A DNA stretch of 43,551 nt, filler included, from Catajapyx aquilonaris (lineage: Eukaryota): NCBI GenBank assembly GCA_000934665.2. It is 2 parts of 2 records of this genome, joined end to end, with 100 filler letters (N's around TTAATTAATTAA, not from the genome) between each part and the next. Parts side by side here need not be neighbours in the genome. Positions count along the whole stretch, not along the records: positions 21,925 to 43,551 come from JYFJ02006009.1; 1 more part is not named here. One strand, given 5' to 3'. The notes under the pieces are model-generated. The model was not told the origin of the DNA, did not search any database, and saw only the letters and a list, made by a program, of their open reading frames with translations. The stretch's first letter is position 1; the number at the start of each line of letters is the position of its first letter. The translations under genes were made by a program, and so were the position numbers. Below, one piece after another: positions 14,119 through 43,551 of the stretch.

Positions 14119-14515
14119 TGCTGTAACAAAAGGAACTCGGTAACATGGGTTTTCAAGTCACTATCAAATTTGAAAGCAACACACACGTTACCAGTGCATT
14201 CCTACCTAAAAGGTTGAAAGTGTACTATTATGAAATTCTCCATTCCTAAGACAACACACCACCAGACAACACACCACCAGCCAACAAATAAAGCAAGCAG
14301 TTCTATAAAGAAACAGAAAGAAATGGCAACTGTGAAGCAACTCATGGCACATGCTGTCTGTCCAGCCCGCAAAACCTCATATCACTAAATTTACATTGCA
14401 CCAGCTACAGTGGTAGGAAATTCCAGCTTTCTAGTCGCCTTGAACCATCCTGGCCTTGTTAACACACCACAGGTTAACAAAAGTGCCACAAAATCTTCAA
14501 CACTCTCTCAACCAA

Positions 14516-14830
14516 GGGGGAGGTGGAGTAGCGCTGCAGTAACGAATGCGCCCACTGATGTTCATGTCCCAGGGTCTCCCCCCTTCATCTCATGGCGAGT
14601 TGGGTCTTCTCTGGCTTTGTCTCGGGTGGAATCTCTGACATATAATCCACCCGGGGAAGTTCACAAAATGTACCGTTTGAGACATTGCACTTGCACTTTG
14701 AACATCCCCTTCCACCCTGCCCTTGGACCTGGGTGATTCATAACAAACAGTTCTAACCTGGTAAAAGCCTGAAATCAAAAAGATCCCCTCATAAGGGCCT
14801 ATGTCATCCATCACGGGGTAATTAAAATAA

Positions 14831-18739: not shown

Positions 18740-20312
18740 GGCGCAAATAACTGCAAAAATAGGAATTAGTGAATTTCCCTCATTTGCCCAAGTATATTAA
18801 AAATATATTGAATAATCAGTATCATCTACTTCCAACGTTAAATAAAGCTTGTATTGATCCCATTTGCTGGGGAACTATCTCTGCTTTCCACTAGTATCCA
18901 TGTCATGCTTGTGGGTTCACGTTAACCTCAAGAAGACTGGAAAATGCAACACAATGAAATTTTATGCTCTTTTTAGTTTCTTAATAGGCACAAAAATTGT
19001 TGCCGTGGAGATTTCACGTTGAAATCTGTTCCTCATACCTCAAAATCTACTTTTGCTATGTCTGCCATCATCTCACCCTTTCATCCAAGAACATACAGAC
19101 AGAGTGAAGTACATTCCCTGATGAAACTCAAGGGTGTGTCCCTGACATCCCACATAAAACTTCAAAATCACCTTCCCCATTGCCAGATTGATGATAACTA
19201 CTCCCACTCTTCATTCTTGTCTCAGACACTCTGCTGATGCCTATTTTCAGAATAACAACTGCCAGATGTGAAATGCAATTACTATCCATAACACTGATTC
19301 ACAGTGCAACTGAAAATTATGAAAGTTAATGGCAATGACATAGTTTCATCTAAAGTATTTGCCTTGCCCTAAATTTATGACAAAATTCGGACAAGTAGCT
19401 CATACACCTAAGATCCCAAAAAAGATGTTTCTGTTATTAATCCACACTTTGGTCAGTAACTGCCCAAATACTGTCAAAATATTGCATTTTACAACGAAGT
19501 TAAAGGTCAGTCATAGCGTGGCATTTGCTCTACAGTTGACTTAAAACAAAGGGTTGAATTTTCATCCCATTCCTCTTTTCAATTGTCGACCCAAGCTCCT
19601 TAGTAATTTCCATGGATTGTCATTGTCCACGCAAAAATCCACCTTTCCAAGCACACGTGATTTCCTTGCAGCATACATTGAAATTATTAAGAAGATCCCA
19701 CATACTAGTTCATTATTGGACTAAATGCATCTAAGAGTAGGAAATGTCAGTTTCAGCCATAGCAGTCACATTCGATAAGGGCAAGTACGGAATCGACTAA
19801 CTGGGGGAACCTTAGAAAGTGAACACAACAGAAAAGCGTAGCATTAAAAATGCCATATAATGCCCTGTCTTCACAAATATATTTCCTCACCCTTGATTGC
19901 AAACTTAAGGTAAAGTTGTAGACATTCCCCTGCAGCTTACGATTGCCTCCTGATGGGACTGTGGAACAATGCAATGAAGATTACTGACACCATGTTGGAG
20001 CTTGTTATTTTTTAGTGATCGCCGAGGTGTGACAGTAATATACAGAGGATTTGAGAAGGTCCCAACTTTACAGACATTACGGCTGGTTCATAAACTACTC
20101 GTTACCTATACCAGCAACGTCATAAGCCTTGCATATGACCCAACTTGCACCTTGTCAATAGCTGCGTCTTATTCATTCCTTACAATGGATGAGGGTAAAG
20201 TATGCCCAGTTTATATGCCCCTTGCATTGTGTTAGGTCAACCCTGGTCTTCTTTTTTCTATCTGAAGGCAAAAACATCCATTAAACCAATAATGGATGCC
20301 CATGCCAATTAC

Positions 20313-21824: not shown

Positions 21825-21923
21825 NNNNNNNNNNNNNNNNNNNNNNNNNNNNNNNNNNNNNNNNNNNNTTAATTAATTAANNNNNNNNNNNNNNNNNNNN
21901 NNNNNNNNNNNNNNNNNNNNNNN
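21825..21923. other. Assembly gap with artificial TTAATTAATTAA linker
   Basis: N-run, TTAATTAATTAA (stops in all six frames), N-run. Confidence 0.95.
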
Positions 21924-22023
21924 NGTTTTATTAGTTCATATATTGGGTTAGCTTGCGTCTCCCTTCATCGCTGACTACCCCTCATAGGGAAATGTCGTGA
22001 TGTTGTTGTTGTTGTTGTTGTTG
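21924..22023 (+). mobile_element. Probable 3' end of a non-LTR retroelement (RTE-like (GTT)n tail) inserted in GR1
   Basis: GCTGACTACCCCTCATAGGGAAATGTCGTGAT(GTT)n abuts GR1 coding sequence. Confidence 0.5.
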
Positions 22024-22552
22024 TAAGTTTGGCACGGATCATTACGTAAGAAATTATCATTAAAGGCAAAAGAAAGCAAGCTGCAACTAGTAACAGAGAG
22101 TATTTCCGCAGCTTTCGTCTGTCATTTGTCACATCATGATTAGAGACGCGGAGGATCAGTTTCCAAATCTGGGTGACTTTGGGTTGAATCAAAACGAAGT
22201 TAATCCACGGGCCACCAATCATAACACCATCCAAAAGTAGACGAGTAATCTTGTGAGTGCAATATTCCGTTGACCATTCCTTTCGAATCCAATGTGGAAA
22301 TGGATAAGCACTAAGTACAGTTACGTAAATGGCGAATAAAAGGAAGTGAACTATTGTTGGCCACCGTCTGCACCACTTCCCTCTCAGATCCTCCTCTTTC
22401 CTTGGCCACGGAAAAGGAGCGATTCCTCCAACCACAGACATGATGGCCACTGGTCTCAACACTTCCCAAAATGCATTGTCCTTCTTTGCACTGTCTTCTT
22501 GCTTCTTCCCTTCCTCCATCTGAATCACTCTATTCGACCTTTCCCTGAACAT
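22024..22552 (-). pseudogene. GR1: gustatory receptor, 5' half of exon 1 only, cut by a (GTT)n-tailed insertion next to the gap
   Basis: MFRERSNRV...DNAFWEVLRPVA... follows GR3 closely up to IRAKL, then homology ends at a microsatellite. Confidence 0.75.
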
Positions 22553-23724
22553 GATGTCTAGGTCAATCCAACTGCCTCTGATTTGTTCCCTTTCTTCTGA
22601 ACGAGACCACAATCATATGAACACACCAGAACTCTCTGTGTTTCTCCGACAAGCAGATGATGGCTCACAATACCTATAGGGTCCAACAAGACGCCACTGC
22701 AACTGCCACGTATTTCTCATGAGCTCATAATATCATAGCCCCCTATACAGAAACGAACTTTTACTGCGCATATAATTATGATCAATTATTATCGTCTGGG
22801 TCTGGTATTATCAATATACAACCGATTTCCAGGTACCGCACCCAAGACTCGACTGAAGGTAACAAATGATATTAGTGGAGAGGCCATTATGGAACATAGA
22901 ACAACTTTATAGGTGTGCAGTACACTAGTGGCAAGAAAGGATATCTGTAATGGGGTTCCCATTGGACATTTTTCACTCCCCCATTTGTAGTGTGTTGCTT
23001 GGCCACTACGGTGAGAGATTGTATCAAGCAGAAAGAAACCAACCACCGGAGAGAGCGGGTGTTGACCTGCTCGTCTCTACCGCTGTATTCTGTATTTATT
23101 TTGACCGTTCCGCACGGTGTTTGTCAATTGGAACAATAGACTTTCTCCACTGTGACTTTGTTTTGGAACCTTCTTTTTGGCCACCTCTTTACAATATCAA
23201 TTATATTCTATTGATTTAGGATAGGAGGAGAGGCCACTGTCTGACTTTGACATGACCCGTTTTATCAATAAAAGAAACAATGGTATTGTTTCCTGCCGTC
23301 GATTGCTCTCTTCGTTGTCTGGTGTAATTCATGGTCTGTGCATCATCTACAGTTACTACAGTTACTCGGGTCGGGGTTGCATAAGTAGGAGGTGTTGTTA
23401 TCAATTTTATTCACAAAAGCATATTCAGACAAACGTATTCAGACATTCAGGCGAACTTTTCTGGGGTGAACTACTATAAGATAGAGTAGATAATAATTTG
23501 CTTGTTGTCCTTCAGTACAAGTTTTGCCATCTGAGGTGACTTCTGGGAAGGTTTGCAGCAACCGACCGCGAGGAGCAAGAAAACATACACAGCCATAACA
23601 TTATGGTGTGATTTTATTTGCTAAATCTTGTACATTGACGTACAGTAACTCTTATCTACAGGGTCATTTTATATGCATGTGCAATTTGGTCTCCGCAGCA
23701 TGGAACGCTGAGATTGTTATCATT

Positions 23725-23920
23725 AACAACGTGAGAGGGTGTTTTTTTATTTAAAGGGTTGCTTCAGATGCTACCGCCCCACGAACAATATGATTTGTTG
23801 CGTTAACAGATGTTGCAGTGGCAGAGAGTAATATGTTTATTCCGATTCTTGGAATAAATATTGTCCATTACATTCAATATGGCACCCTGTTCATGGAAAT
23901 GATCAACGCATCGGCTTGTT
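23725..23920 (-). pseudogene. GR3-like internally deleted gustatory receptor fragment
   Basis: TSRCVDHFHEQGAILNVMDNIY piece joined directly to the terminal codons and a 3' flank matching 27187-27320. Confidence 0.8.
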
Positions 23921-24416
23921 GCCCTAACCCAGTGGTTCCAAAACTGTCCCATAGTTCCGCAAAGGGCTCCGCGGAAGCTTTGAGCATAACATGACAATAT
24001 ATTTTGAAGAAAAAAATAATCACTTGTCCACCTGGATTAGGCCTAGGTTTAGAGTTCAGAAGAAGCCAAAGCAACTATGGCAGCGGTTCTTAACCTGCGG
24101 TGTACGCAACCCCAGGGGGTGTAAGGTGGCTTCCCTGGGGGGTGCGAGCAAGGTGCAACTCTGGACTTAATCTAATCAAGAGCTAATAACTGGTCTAACT
24201 ATGAACAGAATCAATCACCCATTGTATAGGGGGTGCGACAAGGTGCAACTGTTCAGTTGATAAATTATTATTTTGATGTAAGTTATGATAGGTGGACCTC
24301 TCCATAACTGTCCAAACCACACTCTTTCAATGGCCACCTGGGAAATATTCCCGGTGGATGTTTTTTCTTGTTTCTATGGTGACTACCACAATAGCTTACA
24401 CTATAGGCACACAATA

Positions 24417-24978
24417 CAGGGTGTCTATTGTAACTCTGCAAAGACTTTCAGGGGTGATAGAGGGGACCAAGACAAGTATTTTTGACATAGGAACCCGTGT
24501 CCGGAAACGTCATCTAGAGGGGGTTCATAGACAAGGAACGGGTGCGCTCAGACGCGTCAGGCGAGAGGCGCTAAGAGAGCGGACTGTTTTGTTGATAGAT
24601 GGCGCCCAGTTGTTGCCAGGTTATGGCGTATCGCGTCGTTGTACGCAAACAACAACGCGATACGCCATAACCTGGCAACAACAGAACCGCGGTTGACTAT
24701 CCGCGCGTCTCCTAGGAGGCATACTTTAGTTGCTAGATGGCTCTGCTGTTGTCAGGTTATGACACATTGCATCGTTGGTTACTATCCGAGCGCCATCTAT
24801 CAACAAAACAGGCCGCTCCCCTAGCGCCTCCCGCGTGACGCGTCTGAGCGCACCCGTTCCTCGTCTATGAACCCCCTCTAGATGGCGTTTCCGGACACGG
24901 GTTCCTATGTCAAAAATACTTGTCTTGGTCCCCTCTATTATCCCTGCTAGTCTTTGCAGAGTTACAATAGACACCCTG
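24417..24978. mobile_element. Tc1/mariner-type foldback MITE
   Basis: TA-CAGGGTGTCTATTG ... CAATAGACACCCTG-TA; arms of about 190 bp; empty paralogous sites near 29210 and 34078. Confidence 0.92.
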
Positions 24979-25155
24979 TACAATACAAACGAGCTGATTG
25001 CATCAACATAAAGCATTACACAGATTCAGATTGATTGACTGATCAAAAAATGACATCCTGTAATAAAATTCACGTAATTGCTATGGATTAATAGAGTCGG
25101 CTAATATTCAATCAACACAAGTTCCCTCAGATTCTATAGCGGCCTTATTGTTCCT

Positions 25156-26673
25156 CTATGAGTCTATGACATGTTGCAATGGCTGAGTCCTCATTCCGAT
25201 TTTTTTGAATTGTGCCATTACGATCAGGTATGTGGTCACAGCCCCTGCCACCTGCAGAATAAACACAACATGTTACATTGAAACACTCAGGGCAAAAATC
25301 GTATTTACTCATGTGAAGCCCAACTCACAGAGGTCAGTAGACTTCGATTGACTGTGAAATAGTTGGCAGCAGTTATCTCCATGGGAGGACCACTCATCAT
25401 CCTGATCAGTGACTTCATCTGAAGAAACACAATTCTCCTGATAATGAGTTTCGCGTAATGGTTGTGGCAAGTGATGATAATGTCTAATTCACTTACGTCT
25501 GCTTTGATGCGGGGGTTGACAACCTGACGATAAGCGTTGATGATGTCGGGCAAGGAAGATGTGCTCTAGAAGATAGTGTAATCAGACTAATACCATTGGA
25601 AGCGGAAATGGAAGTGCACAAAGCATTACGATTCATATTTAAATTAAAATCATTTTCGCCATGCATATACTCGTACCGATACATGCAATTACCTGATGTG
25701 AAATGGATCCCAAAATGACAGCAAGAAAAGACATTGAAGTAGTCATCGTGCACATTCCAATGCATGAAAACGCTACCACAACAGCGTTTGCCACCAAAAA
25801 TATGTAGAAGAGATAGCTTGTGATCCAAACCACAGCTATCAAGAAAATGTTCACAAGCAGCGGACCATAAATATCGTTCATGATGTTCACTAAAGCACCC
25901 AGTTCATGATAGTGATCGGCGGAACGGCTGATTGTCCTAACAATTTGATCATTGTACTGATGGTTTGTTGTTTGGGAAACAAGAAATGTGCATATTTTTG
26001 TAATTTCTTTGTTGAAGTGCTGTAAGTGAGACCGGTGAATAAGAGCCAAGAACGTTAGCTGAGCAGAAATAATGAACAGCAAGAATAAGGAGTGCCAGTA
26101 CAAGAATGTCACAAACAACATGTACGGGTCAAGTAAGTGCCAATCAAGAGAGATAGAGATGATCCATTCAGACAGAACTAATACAGGATTTAAAAAACAA
26201 GCGCCAACTAGCAACATGGAATATAATCGCAGCTTTCTCTTGTCACTTGTTACTTCCTGCTTTGAGAATCGAATAATTAGCTTCCAAATCTGACTGACTT
26301 TGGTTTGAACCAAGATGTAGGTAATCCAAGAGCCAGCCAGTAAAACACCTTGCGTAATGAAAAGAGAGATCATTGCCGTCGGGCTTGCGTATTCTTCAGA
26401 GTCAATAGTCCACTCCGGGAAAGGATGCACACTGACTATGGCGATGTAAACGGCGAGAAAAAGCAGGTGCACCATTGTTGGCCACCGTCTGTACCACCTT
26501 CCTCTCAAGTCTTCCTCTTTTTTTGGCCACGGAAAAGGAGCAACTCCTCCGACCACAGACATGATGGCCACTGGTCTCAACACTTCCCAAAATGCATTGT
26601 CCTTCTTTGCATTGTCTTCTGTCCGTTTCCCCTCCTCCATCTGAATCACTCTATTCGACCTTACCCTGAACAT
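25156..26673 (-). CDS. GR2: gustatory receptor (7tm chemoreceptor); exons 26673-25693, 25565-25497, 25418-25329, 25251-25156
   Basis: Multiple hydrophobic segments; exons of 981/69/90/96 nt, three phase-0 GT-AG introns; C-terminus AANYFTVNRSLLTS-VAGAVTTYLIVMAQF. Confidence 0.9.
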
Positions 26674-27300
26674 GATTTAGTTTCCAATCCAAGTTCCGAC
26701 TACTGAATGATTTTTGTCAATTTGTTGTTCCATCCATACTGTACATCAAAAGCTTTATGTAAGAGTGCAAAATTAATGTCCATGTTAATAAGTTATCATT
26801 ATAAAATAATGAAACTTGTGCCTGTTGCAGTGGAGTACAAGTCGTGTTTCAGACTGGTGGTTTGCAGTACCTGTGGCGTCTAACGCCATACTGCAACTGA
26901 TCATGTATGCTACACAACATTGAAGTAAATCCTCCTACGCAGAGGAGTTTGGACAGCGCATATTTGGTAAAATTAATATCCACAAAGCTGAGATATTGAC
27001 CCACAATGTAATGGGTTTTAATGTACCCTAATGGATCATGAATGTGATAAATGATATCCTGGTGATGGATCTATTGGCGACCCGATTCAGACATACCACT
27101 CACTCTTTGAAACACATGGCAGTAATTTTTCTCATGAAGGTCTTTGTCGGATGTTATTTTTATGGTCTGTCTAGCCCGTTATCATGAACAACGTGACGGG
27201 GTGTTTTTTTATTTAAAGGGTTCCTTCAGATGCTATCGCCAAACGAACAATATTATTTGTTGCGTTAACAGATATTGCAGTGGCAGCTAGAGTCATATGT

Positions 27301-28767
27301 TTATTCCGATCCTTGGAATTGTGCCAAGACAATCACATATGTGGTCACAGCTCCTGCCATCTGCAGAGGGAATGAAAAGCGACAGATTCAGACACTCAAA
27401 TAAGGTACATTAAATGAACTCACAAAGGTCAATAGGCTTCGATTGACTTTGAAATAATTGGCAGCGGTTATCTCCATGGGAAGTCCCATCATCATAATGA
27501 TCAATGACTCCAGCTGAAGAGAAATAATGCTATACAGATAATTCATATTAGTAGACCCAATATGATCATATTGGCTAATGCAGTTACCTCTGCTTTGATT
27601 TTGGTGTTGACAACTTGACGATACGCGCTGATGATGTCGGGTAAGGCCGTTGTGCTCTGGAAGTGTATGGCCCATAATTGCATGTTTAATATTACACAAT
27701 GTTAATTTATTGGAATAATTATTAATGAAGCAGTATTGCACGAGGTAGAAAATAATATCGAAATGCAACAAATATTCTATGCTCTTCGCAATATTCACCT
27801 GTCTTAAAATGGATCCCAAAATGCTGGTGAATGTAACTCCAGAAGTTGCAATGGTGCAAATTCTAAGAAACCGGAACACTGACATAATGGCGGGGGTTCC
27901 GGTTGCCGGAATAAACAAATAGAAAATTGTGCTTGTAGTCCAAACGATGAATACCAGGAATGTGTTGATAAGGAATACGCCATAAATATTGTCCATTACA
28001 TTCAATATGGCACCCAGTTCATGGAAAATATCGGCGCATAGGCTTGTTTCCATAACCATTTCACCATCATGCTGATGGTCCCTTGTATTTGTACGCAGAA
28101 TACGACAAATTTCTTTCATTTTGTCGTTAAAATATTGTAACCGTGACAGATGAACAAGAACTAAGAACATGAGCTGAGTAGGAATGACGAATAATAAGAA
28201 AAAACAGTGCCAATAGAAGATCATTGAAAGCATGAAGTTAGGTTCAAATAATTCCCCTGCAAGTGTGTCACGGATTATTATGTAAGAATTAATTATTAAA
28301 GGCAAAAGAAAACAAGCTGCAACTAGTAGCAGAGAGTATTTCCGCAGCCTTCGTCTGTCCCTTGTCACATCCTGATTAGAGACGCGGAGGATCAGTTTCC
28401 AAATCTGGGTGACTTTGGGTTGAATCAAAACGAAGTTAATCCACGGGCCACCAATCATAACACCATCCAAAATTAGACGAGTACTGTCTACCGTCGTCCT
28501 GTCCTTTCGCATCCACTGTGGAAATGGATAAGCACTAAGTACAGAGACGTAAGTGGCGAGTAACAAGAAGTGAACAATTGTTGGCCACCGCCTGTACCAC
28601 TTGTTCTTCCTTAAGTCTTCTTCTTTCTTGGGCCACGGAAAAGGAGCGATTCCTCCGACCACTGACAAGATGGCCACTGGTTTGAACACTTCCCAAAATG
28701 CATTGTCTTCTTCTGCCTCCTTCCCTTCCTCCATATGAATCACTCTATTCGACCTTATCCTGAACAT
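27301..28767 (-). CDS. GR3: gustatory receptor, 395 aa; exons 28767-27799, 27656-27588, 27513-27424, 27360-27301
   Basis: Intact spliced frame ending MAGAVTTYVIVLAQFQGSE*. Confidence 0.92.
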
Positions 28768-29546
28768 GATTTTTGAGCCAATCTAACTCCCGACTACGGA
28801 ATATCTCACAATTAGCAGTGCCTAGTCCCCACAAGACGCGAACGCTACTGCCACGTATTTCTCCGTAGTTCCTAATATCACGACGTTATTGGCTAGAACT
28901 TGAACATTACAATATTGATCCACAATATAAAATTCTAATGGGCTTTCCTGTACCCTAGAGACACATGAAACTGACAAATGGATGTGTTTATTGGTGGTAT
29001 GGCAACTATGTGTTGTTCCGTATAGAGGGGTGATAGATGAAGTTTATTTATTCTTTTCATGTGTGGTGTATGATGGGTGATGGGTGTGGTCTTCCATGGG
29101 CCTCTCCCTAACTGTCCAGACCACACCCTTTCAATGGCCACCTGGGAAATATTCACGTTGGATGGATTTTGTTTCAATGGTGACGACCACAATAGTCTTA
29201 AACTTCGCACACAATACATACGAAATTGATTGACTGATCAAAAAAAAAGTCCTCCTGCCCTTTCCTGCGCATTTCGTGATACGACTAGTGGTTAACATGT
29301 CTTCCTCTATCAGCTAGCGACATGGAATATATTCGCAGCTTTCTCTCATCACTTGTCATTTCGAGGTCAAACATTCGTGATCAAGAAAGAGATCAACAAC
29401 AGCACACATGTTCAGTTAACACCTGACTCTTCAGACTCACGCCTACAGCACATATTATTTCAATCAACTAATGTTCCTTCATGCGCAGTCGCCTTACTAA
29501 CAAAATTTGGTTAGTGGTGCAATGTTGCTCTGGTCCAATTATCTCT

Positions 29547-31007
29547 TCATTTCGATCCATTGAATTGTGCTAAGATGATTACATATGTGGTCACAGCCCC
29601 TGCCACCTTCAAAAGTAAACGAAACATGACACATTGAGACACCCAGAGCAACAATAAGTCACACTTTTGATGCCCAACTCACAGAGGTCAATAGACTTCG
29701 ATTGATTGTGAAGTAGTTGGCCGCAGTTATCTCCATTGGAGGACCACTCATCCTCCTGATCAGTGACTTCATCTGAAGGGAAACAATGTTCAGAACATGA
29801 GTTTTGCTTAATGATTGTGGCATAGTAATTAGTACACAATATTATAATAATGGCGAGTTCACTTACGTCTGCTTTGATGCGGGTGTTGACAACTTGACGA
29901 TATGCGTTCATGATGTCTGGCAAAGGGTTTGTGCTCTGGAAGGATGATACATTTTGGCGTACAATGATAAGATTGATTAGGTTGCAAATGGATATAGTTT
30001 TGCTTAATGTCTTCATGAGTACTTATGCACATTACCTGCCGTGTAATGGATCCCAAAATGACAGCAATAGCAGACACTAGAAACATCATGGTGCAAATTT
30101 CAATACACGTAAGCACTGTCTGAATTGGAGTCGTCGTCCCCAAAAATAAATAGAAGATGTCGCTTGTAATCCAAACGACTGATATCAAGAAAAGGTTCAC
30201 AAGGAGAACCCCATAAATGTCGGCCATAATGTTCACTAAAGCACCCAGTTCATAATAGAGATCAGCGCAACGGCTCGTTTCCATAACCGTTTGGTGATTA
30301 TATTGGCCCACCATTGTGTTTGCAACCAGAAAGTCGCATATTTTTGTAATTTCATTGTTGAATCGTTGTAAGTGAGACCGGTGAACAAGGGCCAAGAACA
30401 TCAACAGAGAGAAAATAACGAAGAGCAAGAATAAGCTGTGCCATAACAAGAATAAGAAAAACAACGTGTACAGTTGAAATAATTGTCCTTCCGCCGCGAG
30501 AAGGACAATCCAACTAGACATAATTATTGTAGGAATAAAAATGCAAGTGATAACAAGTGAAATAGAATATATTCTCAGCTTTTTCTTGTCATTTGTCACT
30601 TCCAGCTTTGAGAATCGAATAATTAGTTTCCAAATTTGAGTGATTTTTGTTTGAACCAAAATGTAGGCAATCCAAGGGCCAGCCAGTACAACACCTTCCA
30701 TAATGTAAAGAGCAATCATTTCCGTCGGGCTTGGGGTTTTTTCAAAAGTCCAGTCAGGGTAAGAATACACACTGAGTATGGTGATGTAAGTTGAGAGTAA
30801 GAGGAGGTGCACCATTGTTGGCCACCGTCTGTACCATTTTCCTCTCAAGTCTTCATCTTTGTTGGGAAAAGGAGAGATTCCTGCGACCACTGACAAGATG
30901 GCCACTGGTCGCAGCACTTCCCAAAATGCATTGTCTTTCTTTGCATCATCTTCTGGCTTCTTCCCCTCCTCCATCTGAACCACACTATTTGACCTTATCC
31001 TGATCAT
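29547..31007 (-). CDS. GR4: gustatory receptor; exons 31007-30036, 29935-29867, 29772-29683, 29606-29547
   Basis: Intact spliced frame ending VAGAVTTYVIILAQFNGSK*; last acceptor is AAG rather than CAG. Confidence 0.9.
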
Positions 31008-31862
31008 GGTTTTTTGTCCTAACGAACTTCCAACTACTGAATATTAATACTAGTCCCTATTTTGTGCCCGAGATTTTCTTTCTTCAGCTGAACGCATGCA
31101 AGTCCTGGTATAATGAAGCCTGATGCAGAGACCACTACCTAATGTACCATCATGACGTGATTCAGACATAGCATTCACTCCTGGAAACACAATCATGAAA
31201 TTATTAATTTTGCGGATGAAGGTCATTCTTTCTTTTGTCCTCTGATTTATGGCCTGTCTGGCTCACAGAATTTGTATGGTTGATGGATCCCTTTCACGGT
31301 CCCTTACATAACGAGTGAGTTTGAAGTTCCGTAGCAACAATCACTATGGAAATCTTGAACTACGTAGCAAATAATTCGTAGTTTTTCATTGCGTTCATTT
31401 TGTTATCAATTGATTCCAAAATGAACACTTACAATATAGTAACAGTATAATTATTGAGTCGTAACTGCCACTTATTTCTCCTTATTTCATAATATGACAG
31501 CCTCATACAGTAACGAACATTTTACTGCGCACATATGACAAAATTTGAATCTGGCACAATTATTATAACTTTACGATATTAATTTATCCACAATACAAAC
31601 GGTTTTAAAAATGATATCGTGATGATTGATCTATTCGTAGAGAGGCCACTACAAGGTAGTATGAAGTAAATTAATAGGTTCTTTGGAGGTACGGAGGAAG
31701 ATAAATATTGGTTCCTTTTCATTCACAATGGGTGGAGACTTGGACATGACCAGTTTGAAGTCTTACAATACTGACTCTGTTCAATGCCATCGACTGTTCT
31801 TGAGAAGCTTACTCTATTCTTCTTCGGCTCTAATTTATGGTCTGTCCAGCCTACGTATCTGC

Positions 31863-33292
31863 TTATTCTGATCCTCTAAATTGTGCCAAGACGATCAGAT
31901 ATGTGGTCACAGCACCTGCCACCTGCAGAACAAACAAAACATGACAGTAAGACACTCAGGACAACAACTAATAAGAGACCAACTCACAGAGGTCAATAGA
32001 CTTCGATTGACTGTGAAATAGTTGGCAGCAGTTATCTCCATGGGAGGACCACTCATCATCCTGATCAGTGACTTCATCTGAAGGAAAATAATGATTCAGA
32101 AAATGGTATTTGCTTAATTAAGTGTTAAGATGAATTCGCTTACGTCTGCTTTGATACGAGTGTTGACAACCTGACGATAGGCGTTGATGATTTCATGCAA
32201 GGAAGTCGTGCTCTGAAAGTGAAATAACATCAGTGAACAGAACGGTATGATTAATTCACAATGGAAATCCCTATATGAGTAGTATTCAGTAATGCACATT
32301 ACCTGACGTGGAATAGATCCCACAGTGATAGCCAGAGTAGAAACCGAAGACGTCATGGCGCAAATTCCAATGCACGAAAACACAGTTATAACTGGTGTAA
32401 GTGTCGTCAAAAATACGTAGAAGAGCGCGTTTATAAACCAAACGAAAACAGTCAAGAAAATATTCCCAAGGATCAGCCCATAAATATTGTTCATGATATT
32501 CACTAAAGCACTCAGTTCATAAAAGAGTTCAACGCAACGGCTTATTTTCCTAACCTTTTGGTGATTATACTGGTCCTCCGTTGTGTTTGCAAGAATAAAA
32601 AATTTGCAAATTTTTGTAATTTCATTGTTGAAGTGTTGTAAGTGAGACCGGTGAACAAGGGCCAAGAACATTAACTGAGCAGAAATAATGAACAACAAGA
32701 ATAAGGGGTGCCAGTACAATAAGAATATAAACCACGTGTATGGTTCAAATAATAATTGCCATTCAGAAGCAGTGTAGATTATGAAATTAGACAGTACTAA
32801 TACAGGATTTAAAAAGCAAGCGGCAACTAGCAACATGGAATATATTCGCAATGTTTTCTTGTTAGTTGTCACTTCTTGCTTTGAGAACCGGATTATTAGT
32901 TTCCAAATCTGAATGACTTTGGTTTGAACCAAGATGTAGGTAACCCACGGGCCAGCCAGTAAAACACCTTCCATAATGAGAATAGCGGTCATTTCCGCCG
33001 GGCTTGCGTAATTGTCATAGTTAATAGTCCACTCCGGGAGAGGATACACACTGAGCATGACGATGTAAGTGGCGAGCAATGCAAAATGCGCCATTGTTGG
33101 CCACCGTCTGTACCACTTCCCTCTCAAATCCTCCTCTTTCTTGGGCCAAGGAAAAGGAGCGATTCCTCCGACCACTGACAAGACGGCCACTGGTCTCAAC
33201 GCTTCCCAAAATGCATTGTCTTTCTTTGAATTGTCTTCTAGCGTCTTCCCTTCATCCATCTGAATCACTATATTCGACCTTATACCGAACAT
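31863..33292 (-). CDS. GR5: gustatory receptor; exons 33292-32303, 32212-32144, 32077-31988, 31922-31863
   Basis: Intact spliced frame ending VAGAVTTYLIVLAQFRGSE*; start assigned by alignment with paralogues (MFGIRSNIV). Confidence 0.92.
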
Positions 33293-33340
33293 GATTTTTG
33301 GGCCAATATAACTCCCTACTACTGGATATCTCACAATTCG

Positions 33341-33666
33341 GAGGGAGGTGAAGTGGCGCAGCGGTAACGCTCGCGCCCACGGATATTACGGTCCCGGGTT
33401 CGATTCCCACCCGGGGTTCCCACCTTTATCCGTGCAGAGTTGGGCCATCTCTGGCTTCATTTCGGGTGGCAATTTCCGATAGACTAAGCCACCCCGGGGG
33501 AGTTCACAAAATGACCGTTAGAGACATTGCACTTGCACTTTGCACATCCCCTCCTACCTATCCTGGAGTAATTAATTAAGATCTTCTTATATGGCTCAAA
33601 TTTCTGATGGTGGTAATCCACCCCCCTAAAGGATATGGTAAATCCCAATGGGGTAATGCAAAAATA
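33341..33666 (+). mobile_element. Full-length tRNA-derived SINE
   Basis: A box GTGGCGCAGCGG, B box GGTTCGATTCCC, 13-bp TSD ATCTCACAATTCG (33328-33340, 33667-33679); empty site at 28803. Confidence 0.92.
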
Positions 33667-34371
33667 ATCTCACAATTCGCAGTGCCTAGTCCCCACAAGA
33701 CGCGAACGCTACTGCCTCATATTTCTCCGTAGTTCGTAATATCACGACGATATTGATCCACAATATTATATTCTAATGAGTTTTCCTGTACACTAAACTG
33801 TACATGAAACTGACAAATGGATGTGTTGATTGGTGGTATGGCAACTATGAGGCAATGTAATACTTGTGTTGTTCCGTAGATGCGATGAAGTTGATTTATT
33901 CTTTTGGTGTATGGTGCACGATGGGTGATGGGTGTGGTCTGGACAGTAAGGGAGAGGCCCATGGGCCTCTCCCTAACTGTCCAGACCACACTCTTTCAAT
34001 GGCCGTCTGGGAAATACTATTCACGGTGGATGGCTTTTGTTTCCGTGGTGACGACCACAATAGTCTTAAACTTCGCACACAACACATACGAGATTGATTG
34101 ACTAATCAAAAAATGTCCGCCTGCCCGTTTCGTGATAAGACTACTGGGGAAAATGCGACACTGTAGTGGTATCTAAATTAATGCCGATTAATTTGCATTA
34201 ATGCAACTCGTCAGAAGTGCAATGTCAAGATCAACAATCAGTGACCAAAAAATAGAGAAACAACAGCAATGTTCAATCAACACCTGACTTTTTACAGGGA
34301 CGACTATAGCATATAATTTGCAATTAACACCACGTGTTCCTTTATCAGCAATCGCTGCACTAGCAAGATTA

Positions 34372-35931
34372 TTATGTTGGTGCATTAGTCGACGTTACAG
34401 TGTCAGAATAATCTGTTGCTGGTTCCGATCCTTTGAATTGTGCCAGGACTATCAGATACGTGATCACAGCCCCTGCCACCTGCAGAGTGAATGAAAAGTG
34501 ACTGATTGAGACACTCAGGGCAACAATATACACTTATGAAGCCCAACTCACAGAGGTCAATAGACTTCGATTGACTGTGAAATAGTTGGCCGCAGTTATC
34601 TCCATGGCGAGACCAGTCATCATCCTGATCAGTGACTTCATCTGAAGAGAAACAATGCATAAGAGAGAATCAGTCTTCCGTACTGATTAGAGCATGTGAA
34701 CTACTTACTTCTGCTTTAATGCTGGAGTTGACAACATGACGATAAGCTCTGATGATGTCGGGTAAGGACTTTGTGCTCTAGAAGAATAAAACCATTATGG
34801 AGCACAATGGCATAATTAATTCACAATGCGAATTAAACGGTTGAGATGGGAGTGCAAACCAAAGTAAATAATAATAATAGCAATGATAATAAATTATTAA
34901 ATGAAGATCATTTTCTACATGCCTACGTGAGGAATATCTCCACGTTACCTGGCGTGAAATAGATCCCATAATGATTCCAAGCATAGCAACTAAATACGTC
35001 ATGGTGCCAATTCCAATGCACTTAAACACTGTCGCAACAGGATTATAGGCAGTCGACAAAAATAAATAGAAGAGAGAGCTTGTGATCCTAACGACTGATA
35101 TCAAGAAAATGTTCACAAGAAGAACTCCATAAATGTCGTCCATGACGTTCACTAAAGCACCCAGTTCATGGAAAAGGTCTGCGCAACGGCTCGTTTCCCT
35201 AACAGTTTGGTGATTATATTGGTCCTCCTTTGCGTTTGCAATTAGATAATTGCAAATGTTAGTAATTTCCTTGTTGAAGTGCTGCAGGTGATACCGGTGA
35301 ACTAGGGCCAAGAACATTAACTGAGCAGAAATAATGAACAGCAAGAGTAAGCAGTGCCAGAACAAGAATAAGACAAACAACAAGTATGGTTCAAATAATA
35401 ATTGCCAATCAGAAGCAATATAGACCATGGAATCAGATATTACTAATACAGGATTTAAAAAACAAACGCCAACTAGCAACATGGAATATATTCGCAGCTT
35501 TCTCTTGTCACTTGTCACTTCCTGCTTTGAGAATCGAATAATTAGTTTCCAAATCTGACTGAGTTTGGTTTGAACCAAGATGTAGGTAATCCAAGAGCCA
35601 GCCAGTCCAACCCATTGCGTAATGAAAAGAGAGATCAATCCCGTCAGGCTTGCGTATTCTTCAGAGTCAATAGTCCACTCCGGCAAAGGATACAGGCTGA
35701 GTATGGCGATGTAAGCGGCAAGAACAAGCAAGTGAACAATTGTTGGCCACCTTCTGTACCACTTTCCTCTCAAATCTTCCTCTTTCTTGGGCCACGGAAA
35801 AGGAGCGATTCCTCCGACCACTGACAAGATGGCCACTGGTCTCAACACTTCCCATCGTCCTTCTCTGCATTGTCTTCTTGCTGCTTCCCCTCCTTCATCT
35901 GTATCACTCTGTTGAACCTTATCCTGAGCAT
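34372..35931 (-). pseudogene. GR6: frameshifted gustatory receptor, close paralogue of GR2; exons 35931-34949, 34777-34709, 34641-34552, 34479-34372
   Basis: 7-nt deletion near 35853 (AAGGAC-GA-TGGGAA versus AAGGAC-AATGCATTT-TGGGAA in paralogues) shifts the frame after about 25 codons; the ORF-track start at 35950 is TTG, not ATG. Confidence 0.8.
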
Positions 35932-36589
35932 GATTTACTTTCCAATCCAACTTCCGACTACTGAATGATTGTTGTCAATTTATCATTCCATCCATACTGT
36001 ATATCAAAAGCTTTATGTAAGATTGCAAAATGGATGTCCATGTTAAGTCATCACTCATCATTATAAAATAATACACCTTGTGCCTGTCACAGTGGAATAA
36101 AAGACGTGTATCAGACTGGTGGTGTGCAGTACCTCTGGCCTCTAACGCCATACTGCAACTGATACCACGTATGTCTCCGACAGTTGTAACATTGCGGTAT
36201 ATCCTCATGCAGAGAGGAGTTTTGACAGCGCATATTTGGTAGAATTAATATCCACCAAGCTGAGACATTGACTTAGAGATATTGACCCACAATTTAATAG
36301 GGGTTTTAATGTACCCTAATGGATCATGAATGTGATAAATGATATCCTGGTGATGGATCTATTGGGGAGAGGTCATTACTTAACACGACCCGATTCAGAC
36401 ATACTGTACCACTCACTCCTTCAAACACCTGGCAGTAATTTTGCCCATGGTTGCCATGGAGGTCATAAATTGTTTATGCAAGGCGTCTGGAGTGCAGTGT
36501 CTAGGTCAAAAATTGGTGATCAAGAAAGAGATCAACAACAGCCTATACGTTCAGTTAACAGCTGACTCCTCAGACTCACGACTACAGAC

Positions 36590-36762
36590 ACTGAATTGGT
36601 GGAGTCTTTGTCGCCAAAAATAAATAGAAGAAAGCGCTTGTAATCCAAACGACTGATACCAAGAAAATGTTCACAAGAAGGACCCCATAAATTTCGGCCA
36701 TGATGTTCACTAAAGCACCCAGTTCCCATCTGAACAACTCTATTTGACCTTATCCTGAACAA
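36590..36762 (-). pseudogene. GR4-like collapsed gustatory receptor remnant
   Basis: Start codon mutated to TTG; FRIRSNRVVQM fused out of frame to the ELGALVNIMA-type segment; both flanks match those of GR4. Confidence 0.85.
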
Positions 36763-37355
36763 GGTTTTTTGTTCAAACTAACTTCCAACTACTGAATGAC
36801 CCTATAGCAGATACTAGTATCTATTATCAGCTCGACATTAATTTTCTTCATCTGAACACATGCAAGTCCTGGTATAGTGAGTTATGGTGCACAGCCCACT
36901 ACCTAATGTACATTCGTGACCTGATTCACTCCTGGAAACTCAATCATAAAATTGATAACTACTGCCATTAATTTTGCGAATGAAGGTCACTCTTTCTTTT
37001 GTCCAGTGATTTATGGCCCACAGAATTTGGATGTTTGATGGATCCCTCTCACGGTCCCTTACAGTCATAAATTGTGAGTTAGAAGTTCCATGGCAACAAT
37101 CACTATGGAAATCTTGAACTACTCAGCAAATAATTTGTAGTTTTGTGTTCATTTTGTTATGATCCCAAAATGACGGAGGAAAATAAATATTGGTTCCGTT
37201 TGATTCACAATGGGTGGAGAGGCCAGTCTCTGACTTTCACATGTTTGAAGTCTTACAATAATGACTCTGTTCAATGCCATCGACTGTTCTTGAGAAGCTT
37301 ACTCTATTCTTCTTCGGCTCTAATTTATGGTTTGTGCAGCCTACGGATCTGTTTA

Positions 37356-38779
37356 TTATGGCCCTCTAAATTGTGCCAAGACGATCAGATATGTGGTCAC
37401 AGCACCTGCCACCTGCAGAACAAAAAAAACATGGCAGAAAGACACTCAGGACAACAATTAAGAGACCAACTCACAGAGGTCAATAGACTTCGATTGACTG
37501 TGAAATAGTTGGCAGCAGTTATTTCCATGGGAGGACCACTCATCATCCTGATCAGTGACTTCATCTGAAGGGACACAATTCTCCTGATAATGGGGTTTGC
37601 TTAATTAAGTGTCAAGATGAATTCGCTTACGTCTGCTTTGATACGAGTGTTGACAACCTGACGATAGGCGTTGATGATTTCATGCAAGGAAGTCGTGCTC
37701 TGAAAGTGACATAACATTAGTGAACAGAACGGTACGTTTCATTCACAATGGAAATTCCCATACGAGTAGTCTACACTTATGCACATTACCTGCCGTGGAA
37801 TAGATCCCACAGTGATAGCCAGAGTAGCAACTGAAGACGTCATGATGCAAATTCCAATGCACGTAACCACTGTCATAACTGGTGTAAGTGTCGTCAAAAA
37901 TACGTAGAAGAGAGAGCTTATAAACCAAACGAAAACAATCAAGAAAATATTCCCAAGGATCAGCCCATAAATATTGTTCATGATATTCACTAAAGCACCT
38001 AGTTCATAAAAGAGATCCGCGCAACGGCTTATTTCCGTAACCGTTTGGTGATTATACTGGTCCTCCATTGTGTTTGCAATTAGAATTTTGCAAATTTTTG
38101 TAATTTCATTGTTGAAGTGTTGTAAGTGAGACCGGTGAACAAGGGCCAAGAAGATTAACTGAGCAGAAATAATGAACAGCAAGGAAAAAGTGTGCCAGTA
38201 CAATAAGAATATAAACCACGTGTATGGTTCAAATAATAATTGCCATTCAGAAGCAATATAGATTATGAAATTAGACACTACTAATATAGGATTTAAAAAG
38301 CAAGCGGCAACAAGAAACATGGAATATGTTCGCAATGTTTTCTTGTTAGTTGTCACTTCTTGCTTTGAGAACCGGATTATTAGTTTCCAAATCTGGATGA
38401 CTTTGGATTGAACCAAGATGTAGGTAACCCACGGGCCAGCCAGTAAAACACCTTCCATAATGAGAATAGCGGTCATTTCCGTCGGGCTTGCGTAATAATT
38501 GTCATAGTCAATAGTCCACTCCGGTAAAGGATATAGACTGAGTATGGCGATGTAAGTGGCGAGAAAAACCAAGTGGATCATTGTTGGCCATCGTCTGCAC
38601 CACTTCCCTCTCAAGTCTTCCTCTTTCTTGGGCCACGGAAAAGGAGCTACTCCTCCGACCACTGACAAGATGGCCACTGGTCTCAACACTTCCCAAAATG
38701 CATTTTCATTCTCTCCATCGTCTTCTGGTCTCTTCCTCTCCTCCATCTGCATAACTCTATTCGATGTTATCCTGAACAT
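37356..38779 (-). CDS. GR7: gustatory receptor, close paralogue of GR5; exons 38779-37790, 37699-37631, 37564-37475, 37412-37356
   Basis: Intact spliced frame ending VAGAVTTYLIVLAQFRGP*. Confidence 0.92.
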
Positions 38780-38828
38780 GATTAATTTGTTGTCCAATCC
38801 AACTGCCAACTACAGAATGATCCAAGTC

Positions 38829-38975
38829 AAGGGGGTAACCACTTCGTTACTCCGGTGTACACCTGCGTGTGGTACTCTCAGTTACTCCTTAGGCACCTTA
38901 CTCTTTGGTACTCCTTGGTACTCCTTGAATTCGGTACTCCAGTGTACACTTCTCACTCGAGTGGTTAACCCCTTT
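38829..38975. mobile_element. 147-bp MITE with a 9-bp TSD (Mutator-like)
   Basis: ATCCAAGTC on both sides; AAGGGGGTAACCAC / GTGGTTAACCCCTT ends; internal GGTACTCCTT-like repeats. Confidence 0.65.
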
Positions 38976-39640
38976 ATCCAAGTCCCTATTACTGTATGTG
39001 GTAGACATATTCCTCAGAGCATTTGATTCATACAATGACTGCTCTAATTTTTTGTCAATTTGTTGTTCCAAAATAATTTCGCAACAGTGCAAAATGTCCA
39101 TGTTATGAGCATCAATGCAACAAAATACACTGAGACAGTCACAGAGGAGTTAATGATGCTGGTTGCAGTACAAGTAATGCAGTGTATCTAAACCCTCTAA
39201 ATCCGACAATGTATCTGACAAGTATTTCTGCTGAGGTCGTTCAGACAAGCTTTTTGACTGAAATTAATATCCACATTGTCACAGTGAGATATTGCGACTT
39301 TGTGATATTGATCCACAATTTAATGAGGTTTAAAAGTCCATGTGCAGACGATGAATGATTCCCTGGTGATGGATCTATCGGTGGGAAGGTCACCACCTTA
39401 CATGACTCGATTCAGACAGAGCACTCACTCTTGGAAACAATGGCATTAATTTTTCCTTGTCGGCTGTTATTTACGGACTGTCCGGCCCACATAATTTATG
39501 ATTGATGGCCAGACATTAACTGGACGAGGGCGTCCACCTACCATAAGTCATCGAAAATGCTTCAATTCTTGATTCTGATTTATGAGGTTGCCTTTCTATT
39601 ATCAAGCACCATTTAGTTGCATTAGGATAATTATACTTAC

Positions 39641-40122
39641 ATTTACCTTGAGTTGTGGGTTGTTCATAACTCTACCTGCGTAAATTAGATGTGGCAGTGA
39701 CCTTGTGCTCTGAAAGTACCAGATATTCATCTTCATTTCATTACAAAGGACTAAATCGCTGATTTAGTAAAGAGTTAAAGATCATGGTCCACAAATGAGG
39801 GTAGATTTAAAAGAGACAAACCCACCTGCAGGGGAAGGGATCCCAAGATCATCGTGAAGGCAATGACAGCAGGTATTAGGCCTGCCACTATGACTGTGAT
39901 GCCGGGTGCAGGCCATCGTTGGTACCACTTCCAACTCTGCACTTTTCTAGGCCAAGGACAAGGAGCGATTCCGCCAAAGGTGGCCAAAATGAACAGCGGT
40001 CTGAACAAGGTCCAAAACGCGTCTGTTCGCTCATCACTTTCTTCTGGTTGCTTTGTCACATTTACTTGAATCACTGGTGATGTAGGACGCGTAGTAAGAA
40101 AGATGCGATTTGATCTCTTCAT
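39641..40122 (-). pseudogene. GR8: divergent gustatory receptor with a large in-frame internal deletion; exons 40122-39826 and 39709-39641, exons 3-4 not found
   Basis: DAFWTLFRPLFILATFGGIAPCPWP N-terminus joined to the exon-1 end ILGSLPLQ|GT (99 codons versus about 325-330); 69-nt exon 2 STRSLPHLIYAG... Confidence 0.75.
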
Positions 40123-40919
40123 TTTGCTGCAACAAGTGGAAAATACTGTGACCTAAACTCTTGTGCTATGCTCAAACGTACGCACTTTGATGGAACCTGA
40201 CACGACAGTCAAACTGCTCTACTTGCTTCCAAGGCAGCAAAAGAAAGAGGGTGTAGTCCATTTCTGCATCACAACTGATGTACATAATTTAATGTATGTC
40301 TTAAAGAGTGACATTCATGACCAGTCGATGGCAGAGGACAATGCCATTGTTTCCAGGACGGATAGTTATGTCTGCATTTTGTTCAGGTCAGCCTTAGGGA
40401 GTGGCCTTACCACCGATCATCCATCACCACAGCTGAAGATGTGGACAAGCCACATACTTATTTGACTTTGCTTTCATATTTATTTTGCATGATTATTGAT
40501 AAATTTTGATGTATGGGGGGAGAAACAAAGAGACACAAAGACAACAAAGCGGGGTATGGGACCTGCCTCCGCGGAGCCAAAGGGTGACACTCACAGGGAG
40601 ATTCGATGACGGTGATTAATGCCGTTGTGTCCAGAAGGGAGTGTTTGGTCAGGGTGGAGACAGGTCAGGTCAAAGTCAGGGAGCGGCCTCTCCACCAATA
40701 AATCCATAACCAGGCTATAATCTGTCACCTTCCTGTGACTTTATGGTATATCCAATCCTATTCAATATTGTGGACAATGGTGGTCATAAATTTCATCTTC
40801 TGCGCAAGCAGGTTACATGACAGTTTCACCATTGCAGTGGAGTGACACGGATTGCTAAGAGGCAAGGTGCCAACTCAAGGGGACATTCACTAGTTGGCAC
40901 TTGGATTGGACAAGATATT

Positions 40920-42348
40920 ATGCACAGGGTAATGTCCAATAGGGTGATTTCGATGAAGGAAATGAACAGATCAAAAGGCAATGCAAAGATGGACAATGCA
41001 TTTTGGGAAGTGTTGAGACCAGTGGCCATCTTGTCAGTGGTCGGAGGAATCGCTCCTTTTCCGTGGCCTAAGAAAGAGGAGGATTTGAGAGGAAAAAAGT
41101 GGTACATATGGTGGCCAACAATGGTGCACTTTCTTTTGCTCACCACTTATATCGGTGTATTCATTGCCTATCCATTTGAGAACTGGACCAGTGACTATAG
41201 AGCGAAAAACCCGACGGTATATATTACAGATATAATTTTGGATGTGGTTATGCTGGGTGTCCCTTGGATTAACTTCATTTTGGTTCAACCCAGAGTCACT
41301 CAGATTTGGAAACTGATCATCCGCTTCTCTAATCAGGATGTGACAAGTCACAGAAGAAAGTTGCGGAAATATTCTGTGATATTAGTTGCAGCAGGATTTT
41401 TGTCTCCTTTTATGGCTATTTTGAATTTCATATTCGATGCCGCCATTGAAAGGAAGTTATTTGAACCACACTACATGTTTTCACTGTTCTCCTATTGGCA
41501 TTGTTTCTTCTTACTTTTCGTCATTCCTACTCAGTTGATATTCTTAGTTCTTGTTCATCAGTCTCGTCTACAGTATTTTAACGACACAATTGAAGATATC
41601 TGCAATTACATGCATAAAAATGCAGAGGAAGACCAGAATAATGATCAAATTGTAATTAAAACAAGCCGTTGCGCCGATCTCTTTCATGAGCTGGGTGCCC
41701 TAGTGAACATGATGGACAATATTTATGGCATATTTCTTGTCGACATTTTCTTGGCATTCCTCGTTTCGACTACAAGGACTTTTTTCTATATGATTTTGAA
41801 ACCAACCGGCCAACCCGCCATTGTGTCAGTGTTTCAGTTCATCGGAGTTGTCACATGGATATCTGCTGCAGCTGCATTCGCCAATATTGTGGGATCTATT
41901 CCACACCAGGTGAGTATTAATGACCGCAAGTAGAATGATAAATAAATACACCATTATGCTGCACAATGTTATCACTCTTCCAGAGCACAAGGTCTTTATC
42001 TGACCTCATCAACTCGTATCGTCATGTAGTCAACCCCCGCATCAAAGCAGACGTAAGTGCAGTGCCATTATAGTATGCTTCAATCATTATTGGAAATTCA
42101 TTATCAGGAGCATTGTTTCCCTTCAGATGAAGTCAATGATCAGGATGATGAGTGGTCCTCCCATGGAGATAACTGCGGCCAACTATTTCACAGTCAATCG
42201 AAGTCTATTGACCTCCGTGAGTTGGGCATCACAAGTGTGACTTGTTGCCCTGGGTGTCTCAATCTGTCCCTTTTCATTCCCTTTGCAGGTGGCAGGGGCT
42301 GTGACCACATATCTGATAGTCTTGGCACAATTCAAGGGATCGGAATAG
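40920..42348 (+). CDS. GR9: gustatory receptor, inverted relative to the array; exons 40920-41909, 41984-42052, 42127-42216, 42289-42348
   Basis: Intact spliced frame (990/69/90/60 nt) ending VAGAVTTYLIVLAQFKGSE*. Confidence 0.92.
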
Positions 42349-43478: not shown

Positions 43479-43483
43479 GAGCC

Positions 43484-43551
43484 ATGGAGAGAGAAGTGGT
43501 TGCAGTGTGTCTGTGCGTCTTGGCCTGGGTCACATCTGGTCAAGTCCAGGT
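43484..43551 (+). CDS. Candidate first exon of a secreted or membrane protein (signal peptide), partial
   Basis: MEREVVAVCLCVLAWVTSGQVQ: charged start, hydrophobic core, T-S-G cleavage-like site; strong Kozak context; window ends at CAG-GT. Confidence 0.5.
   Translation, partial: MEREVVAVCLCVLAWVTSGQVQ

Follow-up and report, generated by a model that had tools for sequence, protein, structure and literature searches.

A relict gustatory receptor array in Catajapyx aquilonaris with a helix S0 block alike at synonymous sites across paralogues, probably homogenised by regional gene conversion

We analyzed a 43,551-nucleotide (nt) stretch of the Catajapyx aquilonaris genome (NCBI GenBank assembly GCA_000934665.2; this whole stretch is hereafter the window), of which positions 21,925 to 43,551 come from JYFJ02006009.1. 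Repeat units in the window were mapped by self-comparison and gene models were derived from the sequence. The self-comparison revealed a run of repeated units spanning 22.0–42.4 kb, which holds six intact genes (A, B, C, D, and F on the minus strand and G on the plus strand) that, judging from family profiles and a structure model, are genes for gustatory receptors (GRs) of the seven-transmembrane (7TM) ion-channel fold. Our main observation concerns exon 1 of these genes, in which a 69-nt block coding for helix S0 and the following loop is nearly the same in dozens of paralogues, at synonymous sites too; the best reading, which we consider likely, is that the block has been homogenised by regional gene conversion.

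All six intact genes have four exons, with exons 2 and 3 measuring 69 and 90 nt, three GT-AG introns that are all in phase 0, and one open frame of 395–411 amino acids (aa); exon 4 carries the motif TY(L/V)I(V/I)(L/M)AQF in each of the six models. Gene A (25156–26673, minus strand; 411 aa) has exons at 26673–25693, 25565–25497, 25418–25329, and 25251–25156; gene B (27301–28767, minus; 395 aa) at 28767–27799, 27656–27588, 27513–27424, and 27360–27301; gene C (29547–31007, minus; 396 aa) at 31007–30036, 29935–29867, 29772–29683, and 29606–29547; gene D (31863–33292, minus; 402 aa) at 33292–32303, 32212–32144, 32077–31988, and 31922–31863; gene F (37356–38779, minus; 401 aa) at 38779–37790, 37699–37631, 37564–37475, and 37412–37356; and gene G (40920–42348, plus; 402 aa) at 40920–41909, 41984–42052, 42127–42216, and 42289–42348. 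Copy E (34372–35931, minus) keeps all four exons on the same plan and is A-like (82% over exon 1); the loss of 7 nt near codon 26 puts it out of frame.

The other copies, all on the minus strand, are more heavily broken. The leftmost (22022–22552) is the 5' half of an exon 1, 84% like B, that terminates at a short triplet repeat; a second (23716–23929) fuses 76 nt of B-like exon 1 to a B-like exon-4 end and 3' flank; a third (36591–36761) is a C-like exon 1 with its interior mostly deleted; and a fourth (39907–40083) is a 5' fragment from a second, more distant clade, 85–88% like genes on other contigs. The leftmost copy ends ~100 nt short of the N run at 21826–21925, an assembly gap with a 12-base pad mid-run, and the array begins on the contig after it; the missing half of this copy may sit in the gap, leaving the left end of the array incomplete. 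An initial annotation of this DNA had counted six intact and five broken copies, had described the same exon 2 and 3 lengths, phase-0 introns, and TY...QF motif, and had quoted four loop words. All of these copies were found, the exon features and the motif hold in the six intact genes, and the loop words were located in A, C, B, and G; a 52-nt exon-1 remnant (29311–29362, minus), E/A-like, adds a twelfth copy.

Exon-1 translations matched Pfam 7tm_7 (PF08395) in seven out of seven cases, at 45.5–60.5 bits against a curated cut-off of 26.6, and gave no row for Pfam 7tm_6 (PF02949) in any of the seven. A language-model search of proteins led to gustatory-receptor clusters at 0.96. The structure model, which covers exon 1 of G (pLDDT 77.9, pTM 0.77; the pore helix of the last exons lies outside it), showed S0 at residues 27–41 plus six long helices. 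When 48,161 chains were searched with this model, the top eight matches were all GR, odorant receptor (OR), or Orco (Z 15.4–20.8; next 8.2), and Foldseek ranks 1–11 were GR/OR, none reaching E 0.001; a sequence search of solved structures gave 0 matches. Hydropathy revealed 7–8 segments per gene model, whose orientation follows from the fold match alone. These matches uphold the GR/7TM ion-channel identity that had been proposed for the array. A G-protein-coupled receptor reading was set aside, with no such family in the Pfam scan and none among the strong structural matches.

BmGr9 has the same S0–S6 fold (Z 20.3, root-mean-square deviation 3.2 Å over 288 residues) and the TYhhhhhQF pore motif in common with the window genes, although the two are only ~14% identical and represent different GR lineages. 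In BmGr9, S7b, the helix that carries TYhhhhhQF, both lines and gates the pore, and the walls of the ligand pocket are formed by S2–S5 (PMC11100771). Each intact gene of the window would accordingly be expected, by analogy, to encode a ligand-gated cation channel subunit, with exon 1 supplying helices S0–S6 and the ligand pocket and exons 2–4 supplying the anchor and the pore helix S7b; channel activity, a tetrameric state, and a ligand are likewise predicted from BmGr9 and other solved GRs. On balance we favor, with some reserve, a role in contact chemoreception as divergent receptors of the bitter type, in which residues at the outer ends of S2–S4 would set the tuning of each one.

The family to which these genes belong is already in print. 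Mitchell, Moran and McKenna (2026; PMC13388675) report 517 'relict GRs' (CaquGR31–547), with 89 pseudogenes, from a japygid dipluran; the relict GRs group with insect relict GRs with support of 98–99 under one model and lower under another, and the exon plan given for the bitter supergroup (bitter, CO2, and relict) comprises an initial exon that is long, a second of 69–72 nt, a third of 90 nt, and a short last one, with phase-0 introns. We found this plan in all six intact genes, in copy E, and in 20 of 23 relatives on other contigs, the other three being unbuildable, and the scale of the family is similar (517 genes vs 714 first-look candidates here). In the alignments of PMC13388675, the six intact proteins are CaquGR148 (C), CaquGR149 (D), CaquGR150 (F), CaquGR151 (A), CaquGR156 (G), and CaquGR158 (B). 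This identity was read by eye over the retained columns of column-trimmed alignments, with spliced C-termini included, and such a comparison is a point to be held against the match. The loop words gave 0 matches in the published alignments, since the trimmed columns break them, and helix words then found all six. The array had been called probably undescribed, and because all six proteins sit in the published alignment that description fails. The words 'conversion', 'tandem', and 'concerted' do not occur in the main text of PMC13388675, which also reports neither a test for selection nor any ligand or expression.

In the same genome, 457 candidate relatives of G were listed, and all 121 that were scored proved to be related, so that G has at least 121 relatives there; matches to 7tm_7 number at least 107 (107 of 111 scored, from the 714 first-look candidates). 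For 7tm_6 there was one marginal match among 15 scored, at 29 bits and overlapping a 7tm_7 match, with no odorant-receptor set among these. A profile search of 1.84 billion representative proteins returned six weak relatives (best E 1.7e-12), in clusters named Zophobas gustatory receptor, Papilio uncharacterised protein, and one hypothetical protein, with three unnamed; a word-index search of 5.8 billion proteins with a 7-gene alignment had 0 of 8000 candidates scored. At least 121 relatives in one genome against six weak ones among 1.84 billion representatives agrees with the lineage-specific expansion proposed earlier. Elsewhere in the genome, ten or more 7tm_7 matches form an array at 19655–76366 of contig G000:C453; their exon plan is a different one, with a long last exon, and one of them weakly matches 7tm_6 too; it may be a 'precursor OR' array or another GR lineage.

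The initial annotation described the array as a young, local, and undescribed receptor clade, with ends kept constant by protein constraint only. Some observations fit such an origin: D and F are a recent pair (synonymous divergence, dS, 0.11), the pairs A/E, C/remnant, and D/F point to a block duplication, and the large protein collections hold no close relative. However, D/F is the only recent pair, the other 14 of 15 pairs having dS of 0.31–0.66, and exon 1 amino-acid identity of the window genes to G is 50–60%, with the nearest relatives of G (83, 77, and 76%) on other contigs. On a tree of 26 full-length models (six from the window plus 20 built in 23 attempts at other loci), the genes of the array took three separate placements and formed one clade in 0 of 200 bootstrap trees. 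With published models for all six genes and homogenisation at synonymous sites as well, we consider the young-clade account very improbable. We take the cluster to be old and of mixed origin, with a degree of recent turnover. The term 'young' is not supported; birth and death in a tandem array is, given intact genes alongside broken copies and a remnant. Because the flanks match in the self-comparison, A-C-D and E-remnant-F appear to derive from one block duplication. It is one of many relict-GR arrays in the genome of this early-branching hexapod, where the family numbers several hundred genes; unequal exchange and deletion, acting over long periods, would account for its growth and decay.

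The S0 block lies at 41001–41069 in G (plus strand; codons 28–50) and is present in every copy retaining its 5' end. Across 59 paralogues, spread over 38 contigs, it is ~92% identical, although the middles of their exons are 30–50% different. At four-fold sites, 26 genes picked at the protein level differ by 0.13–0.22 in codons 25–70, compared with 0.29–0.48 in the middle; exons 3–4 are alike within the array (0.14) and hardly so with other contigs (0.37). An 81-nt block query scored at least 40 copies at 94–100% (125 candidates). Out of 104 exon-1 frames, 50 (G included) have at least 38% mid-exon amino-acid identity to G, and in all 50 the block is at least 84% identical. The genes cluster by block into pools of 59 and 32 genes plus five small ones. 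The idea that the termini are nearly invariant is borne out for residues ~27–67 and 354–398, which are conserved, and not for the first 24 residues, which vary (nonsynonymous difference, pN, 0.21), nor for the C-terminal tails, which differ. Because the N-terminal segment is homogenised at synonymous sites too, protein constraint alone is insufficient as its explanation.

The main rival to copying is that the block is a DNA- or RNA-level element in the exon (an exonic enhancer, RNA structure, or small-RNA target) maintained by selection. Codon choice is nearly fixed at codons 28–50, while equally invariant residues elsewhere use mixed codons, and the block sits 80–150 nt past the start codon, both of which such an element could account for, as it could the unraised GC content and the third positions common to both pools described below. 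Steady constraint predicts a sister-pair rate in the block of roughly a quarter of normal, but the 35 sister pairs among 172 genes revealed synonymous change at 61/687 sites in the block vs 613/7460 in the middle (0.089 vs 0.082), and between D and F the block region shows the greater difference (7/30, against 15/182 in the middle). Pool-wide, the block difference stays at 0.04–0.09 while that of the middle rises from 0.03 to 0.50 (Spearman -0.01). This normal sister-pair rate together with a flat pool-wide difference points to repeated overwriting from the pool and not to steady constraint. More distant clades carry their own, wholly different block sequences, and as RNA the block folds no more stably than shuffled sequences do (z -0.01 and 0.83). 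Two candidate elements, a three-way junction and a YY1/Pho-like transcription-factor site, were dropped, since distant clades differ in sequence there. We judge a selected element without copying to be unlikely.

The distribution of block variants would also fit exchange between contigs. Among distant pairs of the 59-gene pool, the block differs by 0.077 between contigs (1383 pairs) vs 0.065 within (12 pairs). The longest identical run falls within codons 20–69 for 1149 of 1163 distant pairs, and identical runs between distant genes reach 94 nt. Block variants do not follow the gene tree, with retention indices of 0.27 and 0.23 against comparison values of 0.68 and 0.73. Cross-clade pairs with at least five common minor alleles numbered 18, with 2.0 expected (maximum 9 in 200 permutations), and gene B and six other genes carry one multi-site block haplotype that spans four of the seven clades, which a selected element would not lead one to expect. 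An approximately unbiased (AU) test of the block tree vs the mid-exon tree was uninformative, the control segment being rejected along with it.

Several observations weigh against homogenisation by gene conversion. The haplotype sharing traces to one haplotype in 17 of the 18 pairs, and at a three-allele threshold there is no excess (46 vs 39.0). The effect is seen in only three of six other clades, and the pools were defined by block similarity, which makes the within-pool figures partly circular. Four-fold GC is not raised in the main pool (0.46 vs 0.46), with values of 0.52 vs 0.43 in the second. Lastly, third positions of codons 31–45 are alike between the two pools (0.09–0.13 vs ~0.65), and this between-pool likeness is unexplained by conversion inside pools. 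In G these codons occupy 41010–41054, and the exon middles of the pools they link are near saturation. On three contigs (C2339, C2196, and C2229 of G000) genes of both pools occur together, each keeping its own block version; the fragment at 39907–40083 is similarly a second-pool copy beside main-pool genes with its block version kept.

Regional gene conversion would work here as follows. A 69–120 nt island around helix S0 would be the longest stretch kept alike by protein constraint, and would let paralogues, including those in other arrays, copy from each other; exchanges resolved at the island would then give a gene with a given pocket-coding body the upstream region and N-terminus of a different gene. 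Taken as a whole, this explanation (a relict GR array, a conversion island at S0, and exchanges resolved there) is one we hold with considerable confidence, the pattern being observed and the mechanism inferred from it.

Upstream regions offer a view of these putative exchanges. Upstream homology was present in 16 of 19 close pairs and in none of 218 pairs at 30–40% distance, and it reappeared among the 1127 pairs that are at least 40% apart, 24 of which have the upstream 250 nt in common. The upstream region and first 25 codons of G (40620–40994, plus strand) are 77–92% like their counterparts in a clade that resembles G by only ~60% in the exon middles: compared with locus L026, G is 77–92% alike from -300 to +200 and 59–66% beyond, and the comparison with L003 gives the reverse pattern. 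Between L006 and L047 the likeness is 83–100% up to +200 and 53–63% beyond. Within the array, D has a body like F (84–98%) and an upstream region like B (76.6% over 535 nt, interrupted by an insertion). The switch in similarity coincides with the block in every swap case. A search for a common upstream motif gave best 7-mers in only 12 of 58 genes, accounted for by shared upstream ancestry.

Such swaps could also arise as chimeric joins made during short-read assembly at the near-identical block, as the genome is in 20,583 contigs and, at the block, even distant genes can match without a difference over as much as 94 nt. The swapped upstream regions are, however, 75–88% identical and not fully so, and the largest case, in which three G-clade genes are linked with five distant-clade genes, would require several parallel mis-joins. 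Mis-assembly could therefore mimic single swap cases, multi-gene cases being harder to explain so, and we rate it as quite unlikely to be the source of the swaps. Carried one step further, exchange by conversion at the block raises the tentative idea, on the doubtful side in our estimate, that the whole clade has in the S0 block a permanent hinge for recombination, at which dozens of genes in separate arrays exchange often enough to reassort promoter-plus-N-terminus modules and pocket-coding bodies. If so, the site of receptor expression would evolve apart from ligand binding, and a hexapod lineage that lacks Orco and lies near the origin of insect olfaction would have a means of diversifying its chemoreceptors in addition to plain duplication and loss.

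We next turn to the exon middles, in which site tests were run on 26 genes and 213 of 260 codons (47 near-gap positions, including most of the first loop, were dropped), using our own implementations of the site models with empirical-Bayes posteriors. Twice the log-likelihood difference (2dL) was 49.5 for M2a vs M1a, 58.1 for M8 vs M7, and 43.1 for M8 vs M8a, with ~6% of sites at omega near 2.5. Nine sites had a posterior above 0.8 (88, 104, 169, 170, 173, 174, 176, 188, and 192; G numbering), all in outward-facing halves. Recombination can inflate site tests, and on their own trees selection was non-significant for segments 71–141 (2dL 0.9) and 235–330 (0.2), both of which count against a general signal; with per-segment trees the S3–S4 signal holds (2dL 35.1). 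Positive selection on the outer halves of S3–S4 is thus supported, and the earlier proposal of ligand-side diversification stands for S3–S4 and is weakly supported for the first loop. The selected sites fall in the pocket that in BmGr9 is walled by S2–S5 (PMC11100771), and those of S2–S4 are a direct handle on what relict GRs respond to.

Outside the receptor genes, the left border of the array is a ZC3H18 (CCCH zinc finger) gene on the minus strand, with exons at 5903–6622 and 13285–14157 and multi-kb introns; its best named relatives are in hemimetabolous insects (~40% identity). At the right border (~43482–43551, plus strand) we noticed, by eye, an open frame whose start resembles a signal peptide and which is cut by the window end. 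A repeat insertion with a 13-nt target-site duplication lies at 33341–33666, ~50 nt upstream of the start of D; it belongs to a dispersed repeat of ~290–330 nt with further copies at 7915–8200 and 14568–14727, which by eye looks like a short interspersed element derived from transfer RNA (tRNA), and a tRNA scan called 0 tRNA genes. Between the broken B-like copies and A, an inverted repeat with 191-nt arms that are 94% identical (24415–24980) is probably a small DNA transposon. A large palindrome-like element with long inverted arms is visible in the sequence at 1689–2693 and is absent from the filtered self-comparison list.

Taken by itself the array contributes little, since its genes and the family they belong to are in print and hence known. 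The island, the swaps, and the selected sites do add new detail, but the kinds of process behind them are familiar ones. Families of insect chemoreceptors are commonly viewed as evolving by birth and death with little conversion (PMC4122928), and a fixed conversion island acting across arrays, together with upstream swaps, would bias whole-gene trees and age estimates and could decouple expression from ligand tuning. In the literature on GR-family conversion and on relict GRs we found no paper on such an island, most subscription papers falling outside the coverage of that search. The nearest parallel is in the clustered protocadherins, for which regional gene conversion is established, as described for fugu (PMC1852091). 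There, too, one exon region is homogenised at synonymous sites per sub-family while the specificity region diverges, and sub-families carry different homogenised versions. The window family has the synonymous homogenisation independent of gene distance, and the tree-discordant variants, the latter largely via one haplotype; third-position GC is not raised in the pool holding the window genes (0.46 vs 0.46). Protocadherin tracts are long, >99% identical, GC3-enriched (raised GC at third codon positions), and within one cluster (PMC1852091), whereas the S0 island spans ~70–120 nt at ~92% identity, shows no GC enrichment in the main pool, and is no less similar between contigs than inside them. 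Among chemoreceptors, the effect of conversion is small in Drosophila families (PMC4122928), one case is described for butterfly GRs (PMC6007367), and conversion has been suggested for clusters in the spider-mite GR expansion of 689 genes (PMC5203786). The mite GRs (PMC5203786) and the Drosophila chemoreceptors (PMC4122928) resemble the window family in being large clustered families with many pseudogenes and birth-and-death turnover; the window family differs from them in that conversion would be focused on one position across dozens of genes.

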